Source: Escherichia coli 042
GTDB taxonomy: Bacteria; Pseudomonadota; Gammaproteobacteria; Enterobacterales; Enterobacteriaceae
Assembly: GCF_000027125.1 (NCBI RefSeq)
Contig: NC_017627.1
Direction: 5' to 3' (one strand)
DNA: 64,000 nt
Positions 42,801 to 45,800 of this stretch are shown piece after piece. Numbering within the stretch: the stretch's first letter is position 1; every line of letters starts with the position of its first letter. A program made the position numbers.

Positions 42801-45800
42801 TGTTGTGCCATCATTATAATAAAATACCCCAGAGACAGACACCCCCCTTACTTTCCCTTCATTAAGGCCTTGCATACATACTGAGACACCGCTGTTATAA
42901 GTATACTGTACTCCAGACTGTTTTATACATTGGGACGGGTCCACATTATCTGCGTTCCAACCGCTACCACCCGCAAAAGCATTCAGGCTGATACCCAAGA
43001 TGCCAGAAAAGATAACAAACTTAATTTTTTTCATATGACTTCTCTCTAGATATTCCCCATGTATATAGAGGTATTTTTCACAATAAATAATTACGATATT
43101 TAGAGGTTATAATTCAGCCAATGCCGCCCCTCCTTTTAGAAGGCTAGCATAAATAAGAGTTGCGGCCAGATAAAAAATAGCAACATATATCGAGTGTTAC
43201 TCGTTTCGACTGAGGGATGCCCATTTTTATTTTTATATTATTTTATAATACATGTTAACCATCCATTTGTAATTTAACAATACTAATATTTCTTTTGGAG
43301 ATAATTATGAACAGAATATATTCGCTTAAATACAGCTCATTGACTGATGGACTGGACTTGTCGCTGTATCTGAATTAACTAGAAGAGTTTCGAGTAAAAT
43401 AAACAGAAAACTTGTAGCAACAATGCTGTCTCTAACTGTTGCAGGTACAGTAAATGCAGCGAATATTGATATATCAAATGTAGGGCGAGGGACTATCTTG
43501 ATCTTGCACAAAATAAAGGTATCTGTTCTTGCCCCCTTATTTGTATTAGCTCAGACCTGATCTGACAGTTACCGGTTATTTATACAGGTATCTGTCAGAT
43601 TACAACTGGCTTAAATTTTTCTCGGCCCAGATGCGCTTTCCATCAAGTAACGTTTCCATTGGCGTCCGCCCATTGCACATTTTTCCCTGATGGGTTCGCT
43701 CATTATTATAGTGAGCCAGCCATTCATCAAGATCCGACTGTAATGTATCAAGATCGCCGTACAGTTTTTTACGGAACGTTACCTGATAAAATTCGTTCAG
43801 GATTGTTTTATGGAACCGCTCGCAGATGCCGTTGGTCTGCGGGGACATCGCCTTTGTTTTCGTGTGTTCTATATCGTTTATTGCCAGATAAAGCTGATAA
43901 TCATGCTGCTCTACTTTGCCACAGTACTCCGTGCCTCTGTCGGTCAGTATTCTCAGCATCGGCAGGCCCTGAGACGCATAAAACGGCAGTACACGATCAT
44001 TCAGTAAGTCGGCCGCGGTAATCGGTGTTTTGGTGACGTAAAGCTTACAGTGAGCCACTTTCGAGGAACGTCTGCTGATAAATACGCCCGACACCTTTCA
44101 GGTTGCCTACATAGAACGTGTCCTGCGAACCCATATATCCCGGATGAGCCGTTTCGATTTCGCCACAGGCCTCGTCATCACTGGCTTTACGCTCCAGTGC
44201 TGCGATCTGGCTGTCAGTTAGCTCAATGCCATCACGGGCTACTTTTTCTTCCAGTGCTTTCAGACGTTTTTTGAAATTCTCAAGGTTATGGCGTAACCAG
44301 ACAGAACGGAAACCACTGCCGGAGATAAAAACGCCCTGTTTACGCAGCTCGTTGCTGGTCCGGTGCTGACCGTGTGCCGGGAAAGCGACGGCGTAATCAA
44401 CAACAGCCTGTTCAGTTGCCTCATCGGTACGGTTCTTAAGGTTAGGAGCGCGGCGACTACGATTAATCAGCGCATCCACACCGCCTTCATCGGCCAGCTC
44501 GCGGTAACGATAAAACGTATCACGCGAAACGCCCATGATTTTACAGGCTTTTGATACGTTGCTGAGTTCTTCAGCCAGATTGAGCAAACCGGCTTTGTGT
44601 TTGATAACGGGATTGGTAGTATGAAGCATGAGAGTTACCTCGTGTTTTGTATAAGAATTCGATACCCATATCAAAACCGGTAACTCTCAACCTTTCAAGG
44701 CTCAGTGTCAGATCAAGTCGTGACTAATACACCTTATTTCCCGACAGGGGTTGTATCTTAAGTTAACGTTACCCGCTGACGTCGATATTCTCGCGGAGAG
44801 CGATAACCCAACGCACTGTGCGGATGGTTTTCATTGTAATGTTCGATCGCCACTGCAAGATTATGCAATGCCGTTCTTACATTCGGTTTCGGCATGAACG
44901 CGATGTAGTCTTCCTTCATCGTTTTCACGAACCTTTCTGCCATTCGATTACTCTGAGGACTGCTGATTGCCGTTGCGCAGGGCTCCTGATTCAACTCTCT
45001 GGCGAACTGCCGTGTTTCATGCGCTCTATACGCTGAACCGTTATCTGTCAGCCACTGGATGGACTGTTCCAGTACTTTATCGCCAAAGCGTTTTTCTATC
45101 GCTCCTAACATGACATCCTGCACTGTCGCTTTATCGTAACCTCCCGTGCTTGCGGCTCAGTCTATGGCTTCACGATCGCAACAGTCTAGGGAGAACGTAA
45201 CACGCAGTTTTTCGCTATCATCGCAACCAAACTCAAAGCCATCGGAACACCAACGCTGGTTGCTTTCCGTCACCGATATTCGGCCTTTATGTTCCCGCTG
45301 CTGTCGTGATGGTAACAGGCTATTTTCGCTCATTATCCGGTTTGCATTCACGAACGGTAGTACTTCATTTCGGGACTGCCGCCTGAGTATCGCCCAGATA
45401 CGGCGATACCCGTATGCTGGCATATCGCCAATGATATCCAGGATGCGCGATAAGACTTCTGCATCCGCAGCCTCATCGCGCCTCTGACGCCGTTTATCTG
45501 GATTATTATCAGATGACTTCATCCGTAATGTTAACTGCGCACGTGACACGCCCAGAACACGGCTTACTGGGGCTATTCCTTGTCCGAAGGTAACAAGGGC
45601 ACATGCGCTATCCATTTTCGCGATTGCGCATACTCCACCGCTTCTTTGAGGATCTCAACTTCCATAGTTTTCTTGCCCAGTAAACGCTGAAGCTGATTAA
45701 TCTGCTTTTTTTATTGCAGCGGCCAGTTCAGAAGCAGGAACAACGTCTTCAGCGGCAGCAATAGCAGTGAGGCTTCCTTCCTGGTATTGTTTCTTCCACT

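Follow-up and report, generated by a model that had tools for sequence, protein, structure and literature searches.

Here we analyse two in-frame TGA codons that interrupt transposase genes in a 64,000-nt stretch of DNA from Escherichia coli 042 (contig NC_017627.1), referred to throughout as the window. The window is the virulence plasmid pAA of this enteroaggregative strain, or a plasmid nearly identical to it, with exact matches to the E. coli 042 proteins CBG27811.1 and CBG27814.1, and it contains repA, the aat genes for dispersin export, ccdAB, the AAF/II fimbrial genes, aggR, aap, aar and F-type tra genes. One TGA lies in orfB of an insertion sequence (IS) resembling ISEc48 at the aar-aap locus, and the other in tnpC of an IS66-family element downstream of aatD, which we call copy A; the window holds a further IS66-family element, copy B. 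The original prediction, made from the sequence of the window alone, described both codons as replacements of Trp codons that may simply reflect decay, and raised the possibility that a leaky TGA serves to down-tune each transposase. The features discussed are listed in Table 1.

Table 1. Insertion sequence remnants in the window and the lesions they carry
Feature	Position	Strand	Basis or details
In-frame TGA, orfB codon 153	45157..45159	-	Within the rve catalytic core; ancestral codon TGG (Trp)
ISEc48-like main body (IS3 family, IS2 group)	44732..46039	-	Alignment to ISEc48 and CP056609; end sequences
Displaced tip of the right terminal repeat and target duplication of the ISEc48-like element	43509..43541	-	End-sequence comparison
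A7 run produced by a +4 A insertion in orfA	45706..45712	-	ISEc48 and CP056609 read AAA
Two in-frame orfB deletions relative to ISEc48	45313..45342	-	9 bp (junction 45342/45341) and 15 bp (junction 45314/45313)
IS481-family element inside the ISEc48-like right terminal repeat	43542..44731	-	Inserted 11 bp from the tip
Orphan ISEc48-like fragment, 300 bp	42092..42391	-	96% identical to the main element
In-frame TGA, codon 483 of chimeric tnpC	9838..9840	-	Ancestral codon TGG; last 29 residues lost
IS66-family copy A, chimera	9718..12088	-	Alignment to ISEc8 and ISCro1-like elements
Copy A open reading frames	tnpA 11680-12081; tnpB 11336-11683; tnpC 9838-11286	-	
IS66-family copy B, ISCro1-like, 2,699 bp	46809..49507	-	tnpA, tnpB and tnpC (523 amino acids) intact

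The element at the aar-aap locus had been called IS2-like, and it does belong to the IS2 group, but its named relative is ISEc48 (94%) and not IS2 itself. Like ISEc48 it has overlapping orfA and orfB genes, is bounded by terminal repeats of the type TGAGCTGGCCCCC... and ...GGGGGCAAGAACA, and has a flanking target duplication, here of 15 bp, and the overlap and frames of the two genes are laid out as in ISEc48, whose coding sequence (CDS) in RefSeq carries a 'programmed frameshift' annotation. An rve-domain OrfB, terminal repeats and a flanking target duplication, traits of the IS3 family and IS2 group, are thus all present. With the TGA read as Trp, OrfB matches Pfam rve over residues 116-219 (1.6e-16) and rve_3 (7e-15) and scores 173.8 bits with the NCBIfam model transpos_IS3 (cut-off 160); its score with the IS2 TnpB model, 378 bits, is below the cut-off of 597. 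Nucleotide identity to ISEc48 is 94.0-94.2%, which is not at isoform level, the threshold used in ISfinder being roughly 95%, and as judged by these identities the window element is a sister lineage of ISEc48 that stands nearer to chromosomal remnants at about 97.6% identity. Target duplications in the IS3 family usually measure 3-5 bp; those of active ISEc48 are 16, 16 and 15 bp long at three independent copies, and that of the window element is 15 bp long. A literature search for ISEc48 returned incidental mentions only.

Relative to ISEc48, the window element has suffered a nonsense mutation, a frameshift and two deletions, its terminal repeats are altered, and an IS481-family element has inserted into it. 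The TGA is where the original prediction placed it and translates as described: the minus strand around positions 45159 to 45157 reads CGT GAA GCC ATA GAC TGA GCC GCA AGC ACG GGA GGT (REAID-stop-AASTGG), and the site is TGG in active ISEc48, in an O157:H7 chromosomal remnant, in the best E. coli match in RefSeq and in another pAA plasmid. The 9-bp deletion falls within a region resembling a helix-turn-helix, which scores 21.4 bits with Pfam HTH_21, below the cut-off of 28.1. Alignment with active ISEc48 indicates that the window copy and the copy in CP056609 have TGG>TGA and both deletions in common, while the extra A residues in orfA, the point changes in the terminal repeats (G>A on the left, T>G on the right) and several missense changes occurred on the window side and have no counterpart in CP056609. 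The insertion in orfA shifts its frame, giving a 103-residue product that ends in ...AAAIKKAD and is exactly CBG27811.1, and the same insertion is present in CP091411.1 (100% match). Synthesis of the OrfAB fusion transposase is therefore blocked, and would be so even with perfect readthrough of the TGA. We considered -1 slippage on the A7G run as a rescue of orfA and rejected it, since the frames need +1 (or -2) and a slip on A AAA AAG fails. Among the missense changes, a Gly>Arg replacement turns SNGMAERF into SNRMAERF, four residues ahead of a Glu that we take to be catalytic from the DDE motifs of the IS3 family.

The ends of the element are also damaged. Its left terminal repeat begins at 46039 (TGAGCTGACCCCC) and differs from the consensus by the single G>A change, and the right terminal repeat of the main body ends at 44732, where the IS481-family insertion interrupts it. 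Beyond the insertion lies the displaced tip, positions 43541-43524 consisting of an AATAAGG duplication plus GGGCAAGAACA, with the T>G change in the right repeat, and the 15-bp target duplication GATACCTTTATTTTG is found on the outer flanks of the element at 43523-43509 and 46054-46040. Outright deletion of the right terminal repeat was considered and rejected, as the repeat is split by the insertion and its tip and the duplication persist downstream. An 11-bp frameshift deletion near 44066 has in turn disabled the IS481-family element, of which CP056609 has an intact copy encoding 346 amino acids.

The second TGA had been defined by comparing copy A with copy B, and the sequence confirms both states. 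In copy A the minus strand around positions 9840 to 9838 reads GTG GAG CCA GAA AAA TGA CTG CGT TAC (VEPEK-stop-LRY), and copy B has TGG at 46927-46929 (GAA AAG TGG CTG, 46921-46946). Both are IS66-family elements, but they are not copies of one IS: copy B is ISCro1-like and copy A is chimeric. Its 5' part, 12088 to about 10008 (about 2.1 kb, comprising tnpA, tnpB and tnpC codons 1 to about 426), is ISEc8 at 98% identity; from about 9979 to 9718 (about 290 bp, about 96-98% identity) it is ISCro1-like, with the TGA inside this portion, and the crossover lies within a 29-bp stretch, 9980-10008, that is common to ISEc8 and ISCro1-like elements. The right terminal repeat is intact at 9718 (GTAAGCGG...), whereas about 75 bp of the ISEc8 left end, including the left terminal repeat, is missing, with an IS3-family end in its place at 12089, and no ISEc8 left terminal repeat was found anywhere in the 64,000-nt window. 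Copy A resembles ISEc8 and ISCro1 in its tnpA-tnpB-tnpC order and in the four Pfam IS66 domains of TnpC, namely LZ_Tnp_IS66, zf-IS66, DDE_Tnp_IS66 (residues 175-461; 2.7e-104) and DDE_Tnp_IS66_C (468-505), and TnpB_IS66 was detected in an identical metagenome locus. It departs from both in being a hybrid without the ISEc8 left repeat, and hence without the paired terminal repeats (GTAAGCG...) of the IS66 family, and in carrying a premature TGA and private missense changes. The stop falls past the DDE domain, within DDE_Tnp_IS66_C, and leaves a truncated TnpC of 482 amino acids.

At the residue of the TGA, ISEc8 proper has Tyr (TAC) and not Trp. The relevant relative is CP056609, which has a complete ISCro1-like element at the identical insertion site downstream of aatD, reading GAA AAA TGG CTG. 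The presence of this element at the same site indicates that copy A arose by recombination and retains, at its 3' end, the former occupant of the site. As relatives carry TGG at both sites, both TGA codons arose from TGG by G>A at the last base of the codon, as originally proposed. The three private changes in the 3' part of copy A (TGG>TGA, GCA>ACA and CCC>CCT) are all G:C>A:T transitions, and in the ISEc8-derived part there are ten nonsynonymous and two synonymous private changes, including Trp331>Cys.

The truncated junction between ISEc8 and the IS3-family end of copy A recurs in pGF4-A, a plasmid unrelated to the window, and among the matches listed five further E. coli records span it, so this scar is old and widespread. 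The IS3-family remnant that adjoins the truncated ISEc8 (12089-12373) retains a 78-residue orfA only and is itself truncated ahead of a tyrosine-recombinase gene (12612-13418) and ccdAB, a further layer of nested IS decay. Copy B has both terminal repeats, which are imperfect, and its TnpC is exactly CBG27814.1; elements of this type are named ISCro1 family in RefSeq. Its TnpC reads CMANARRK at residues ~341-348 (window 47200-47260), compared with CMAHARRK in the ISCro1-like element of CP056609 and CWAHARRK in ISEc8, and the His>Asn change hits a motif that we presume to be conserved in IS66 transposases. Despite this change, the exact copy B TnpC protein occurs on 149 contigs.

Although the two TGA codons described originally are both real, a third had been overlooked. 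The orphan ISEc48-like fragment between aap and aggR, which is promoterless, carries the identical TGA at minus-strand positions 42101..42099 together with both the 9-bp and the 15-bp deletions. In the O104:H4 pAA, p266917_2_01 and pE700481_123, the orthologous fragment has identical flanks and an identical internal junction, with TGG and no deletions; in CP056609 the deletions are present and the codon is TGG. The fragment and the corresponding part of the main element form direct repeats on either side of aap (42092-42391 and 45150-45449), 3 kb apart. The simplest account would be stepwise gene conversion of the orphan fragment by the main element, and recurrent mutation at the TGA site, where the tract is short and without a marker, may formally explain the codon as well. 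A TGA copied into a promoterless scrap of 300 bp argues against a function for the TGA.

The distribution of the two alleles was examined with an 81-mer around each TGA. Among 160 matching plasmid records, the IS2-like 81-mer, centred on the codon, was found exactly in CP091411.1 only and with one mismatch in CP056609, CP056614 and CP056903, all four at the aar-aap locus, with the remaining records more distant. Of the 778 E. coli records that gave a match in RefSeq, none had fewer than two mismatches, and the top match has TGG. A metagenome scan recovered this TGA in three human-gut contigs, all colinear with the window locus, and the exact 152-residue OrfB open reading frame (ORF) occurs on 53 contigs, for some of which the context was read. 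For the IS66 81-mer, none of 1,566 plasmid records and none of 2,348 E. coli records had fewer than two mismatches, and this allele is absent from 100,044 species-representative genomes. We considered and rejected the idea that it is private to the window, as the exact 482-residue TnpC is encoded at the same locus on three metagenome contigs, with the gene order ccdAB-...-aatD in both places shown. All TGA-bearing sequences whose context was read are colinear with the window at the respective locus, and both TGA codons are real, derived and tied to one locus each. The survey of other genomes for the ancestral codon, which had been suggested as a check, thus gave TGG in the other relatives read at both the IS2-like and the ISCro1-like site, and neither stop is conserved among homologous copies in the manner of a readthrough site.

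The substitution pattern of the IS2-like gene appears to change with the TGA. Between ISEc48 and either the window or the CP056609 copy, the ratio of nonsynonymous to synonymous substitution rates (dN/dS) is 0.05-0.30, which is as expected if the element was still active as it diverged. The window and CP056609 copies, in both of which the TGA is present, differ by nine nonsynonymous and three synonymous changes (six and one in orfB alone), which is near the neutral site ratio of 3.4:1, albeit with the low power of 12 differences. Selection on this gene thus looks relaxed since the TGA arose. If each gene is taken to have acquired a single nonsense mutation, TGG>TGA has a probability of 3.5-8% in the IS2-like gene and of 5-11% in tnpC, and a pair of nonsense mutations would follow one common codon path, whichever it is, with a probability of 6-10%. 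With no more than two events, paired after the fact, these figures do not point to a shared mechanism other than the general tendency of E. coli towards G:C>A:T mutation. A Dcm (CCWGG) deamination hotspot was considered as such a mechanism and rejected, since neither TGA site lies within CCWGG. Lesions of other kinds occur in nearby IS sequences, including the 11-bp deletion in the IS481-family element and, in sister copies, the nonsense changes GAG>TAG (ISEc8) and TAC>TAA (an ISEc48 remnant). The 70 nt downstream of each TGA show no stronger folding than shuffled sequence does (z = 0.25 and 0.38), and no hairpin resembling a selenocysteine insertion sequence (SECIS) was found.

We conclude that both TGA codons are very probably ordinary nonsense mutations in decaying, immobile IS remnants, that is, plain pseudogenisation, the possibility the original prediction had itself allowed for. 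It had named additional disabling mutations in these genes as the finding that would speak against readthrough, and such mutations are present in both elements. The genes have the marks of pseudogenes, with several independent disabling lesions and an allele confined to one locus and, in the contexts read, inherited vertically. Moreover, with the right terminal repeat split in one element and the left terminal repeat missing from the other, neither would be expected to move even if supplied with full-length protein. Several points weigh against this conclusion. The joint chance that both nonsense mutations are TGG>TGA is 0.2-0.9% under simple models, and the selection test, with its 12 differences, gives a one-sided P of about 0.06 when the earlier level of constraint is taken as the reference. 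Of the stop codons, UGA is the most prone to leak and is readable by tRNA-Trp, which restores the wild-type residue, and the stop of copy A is followed by C, UGA-C being a weak termination context in E. coli. The truncated TnpC of copy A keeps the whole DDE domain, and on its domain content may have some activity or interfere in trans.

One rival reading is that the TGA codons have been retained as leaky stops, at which tRNA-Trp readthrough would give a little wild-type transposase and allow transposition at a low rate. Bacterial stop codons are read through at 10^-3 to 10^-2, and more so under stress (PMC10057733), insertion of Trp would bring back the ancestral residue, and the identical codon change has befallen two unrelated transposases. 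Against this, neither element would be expected to be mobilised even by full-length protein: one has a split right repeat and a frameshifted orfA, and the other has no left repeat. The TGA is conserved in no other copy examined, each TGA-bearing element is found at one locus only, the substitutions that followed the TGA look neutral, and the flat folding results hold for both stops. We therefore do not retain the down-tuning proposal and consider it very improbable. Some passive UGA leak is surely to be expected, as at any UGA nonsense mutation; nothing suggests that it is selected or useful. It is similarly improbable that a UGA-C leak of full-length hybrid TnpC, or interference of the 482-residue protein with copy B, modulates IS66 activity and the stability of pAA. 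Slightly less credible still is a functional truncated product, in which the 482-residue TnpC or the 152-residue N-terminal fragment of OrfB would inhibit related elements in trans. In favour, the truncated TnpC keeps its DDE domain as well as the LZ and zinc-finger domains, the plasmid also carries copy B, which is ISCro1-like and intact, and the 152-residue ORF is abundant among contigs; yet in the contigs checked this abundance reflects descent of the pAA locus, the orfA frameshift leaves no route by which OrfB could be translated, the private changes in copy A number ten nonsynonymous and two synonymous, and no sign of selection is seen. Least credible of all, and rejected here, is sequencing or assembly error, or a non-standard reading of TGA as selenocysteine or Trp. 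CP091411.1 has two single-base indels in copy B tnpC that are possibly assembly errors, and the IS66 TGA is in none of the complete records searched, but both codons recur in independent assemblies, the IS2-like TGA in CP091411, the CP056609 family and the three gut metagenome contigs, and the IS66 TGA on three ENA contigs. Of the window's 31 other long ORFs, 17 end in TGA (among them those of aatP, aatD, pet and traI), so the standard genetic code applies, and a SECIS-like hairpin is lacking.

Taking plain pseudogenisation as the explanation, we infer an order of events from the lesions, the distribution of the alleles, the chimeric structure and the substitution counts. An ISEc48-type element would have transposed in between aar and aap, leaving the 15-bp target duplication that remains, and would then have decayed in place. 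An IS481-family element would have split its right repeat, and orfB would have lost 9 and 15 bp and gained the TGA; the four-base frameshift in orfA and the point changes in the terminal repeats would have come later. Gene conversion across aap probably then carried the TGA and the deletions into the older ISEc48-like fragment 3 kb away. At the other locus, an ISCro1-like element downstream of aatD would have had its 5' 2.1 kb exchanged by homologous recombination for an already truncated ISEc8, and the TGA of copy A would have arisen afterwards in the surviving ISCro1-like 3' end. In both cases the underlying events would be G:C>A:T transitions at Trp codons, fixed by drift in IS remnants free of selection.

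Programmed recoding, such as the -1 frameshift of orfAB in the IS3 family, and UGA readthrough offer an instructive comparison, as a leaky stop would likewise give a low yield of full-length transposase. Programmed sites, however, are conserved across copies and occur in otherwise intact mobile elements, whereas the stops in the window are derived alleles of single loci, in broken elements and without a stimulatory structure. The case is no different in kind from the other IS remnants and pseudogenes on the pAA plasmids of enteroaggregative E. coli. In pAA of strain 042, 32 of the 152 CDSs are reported to be pseudogenes and 18 genes to encode transposases (PMC2808357). What is newly added is the lesion-by-lesion history. 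The import is largely one of annotation: both ORFs should be annotated as pseudogenes in dead IS remnants and not as candidates for translational recoding. Around the aggR-aap-aar and aat virulence loci, the history of lesions is of modest use for telling lineages of pAA plasmids apart, the events in question being the insertion of one IS into another, the recombination between ISEc8 and the ISCro1-like element, and the gene conversion proposed between the ISEc48-like repeats that flank aap. More generally, a codon change common to two pseudogenes can be coincidence.

The E. coli plasmid CP091411.1, the closest complete plasmid, which shares the IS2-like TGA, is 99.8-99.9% identical to the window in matching blocks but is a distinct plasmid with differences at several places. 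It lacks window positions 9505-11948, a 2,444-bp deletion that has taken most of IS66 copy A, and the deleted length is about that which we take ISEc8 to have. The junction of this deletion reads CTAATGT/TTTGAG (the slash marking the join), with an overlap of one or two bases, and its breakpoints lie away from the IS ends. In the same plasmid, single-base insertions at the positions corresponding to window 47481 and 47754 interrupt copy B tnpC, which is consequently not listed as a CDS; these may be real frameshifts or errors of long-read assembly.

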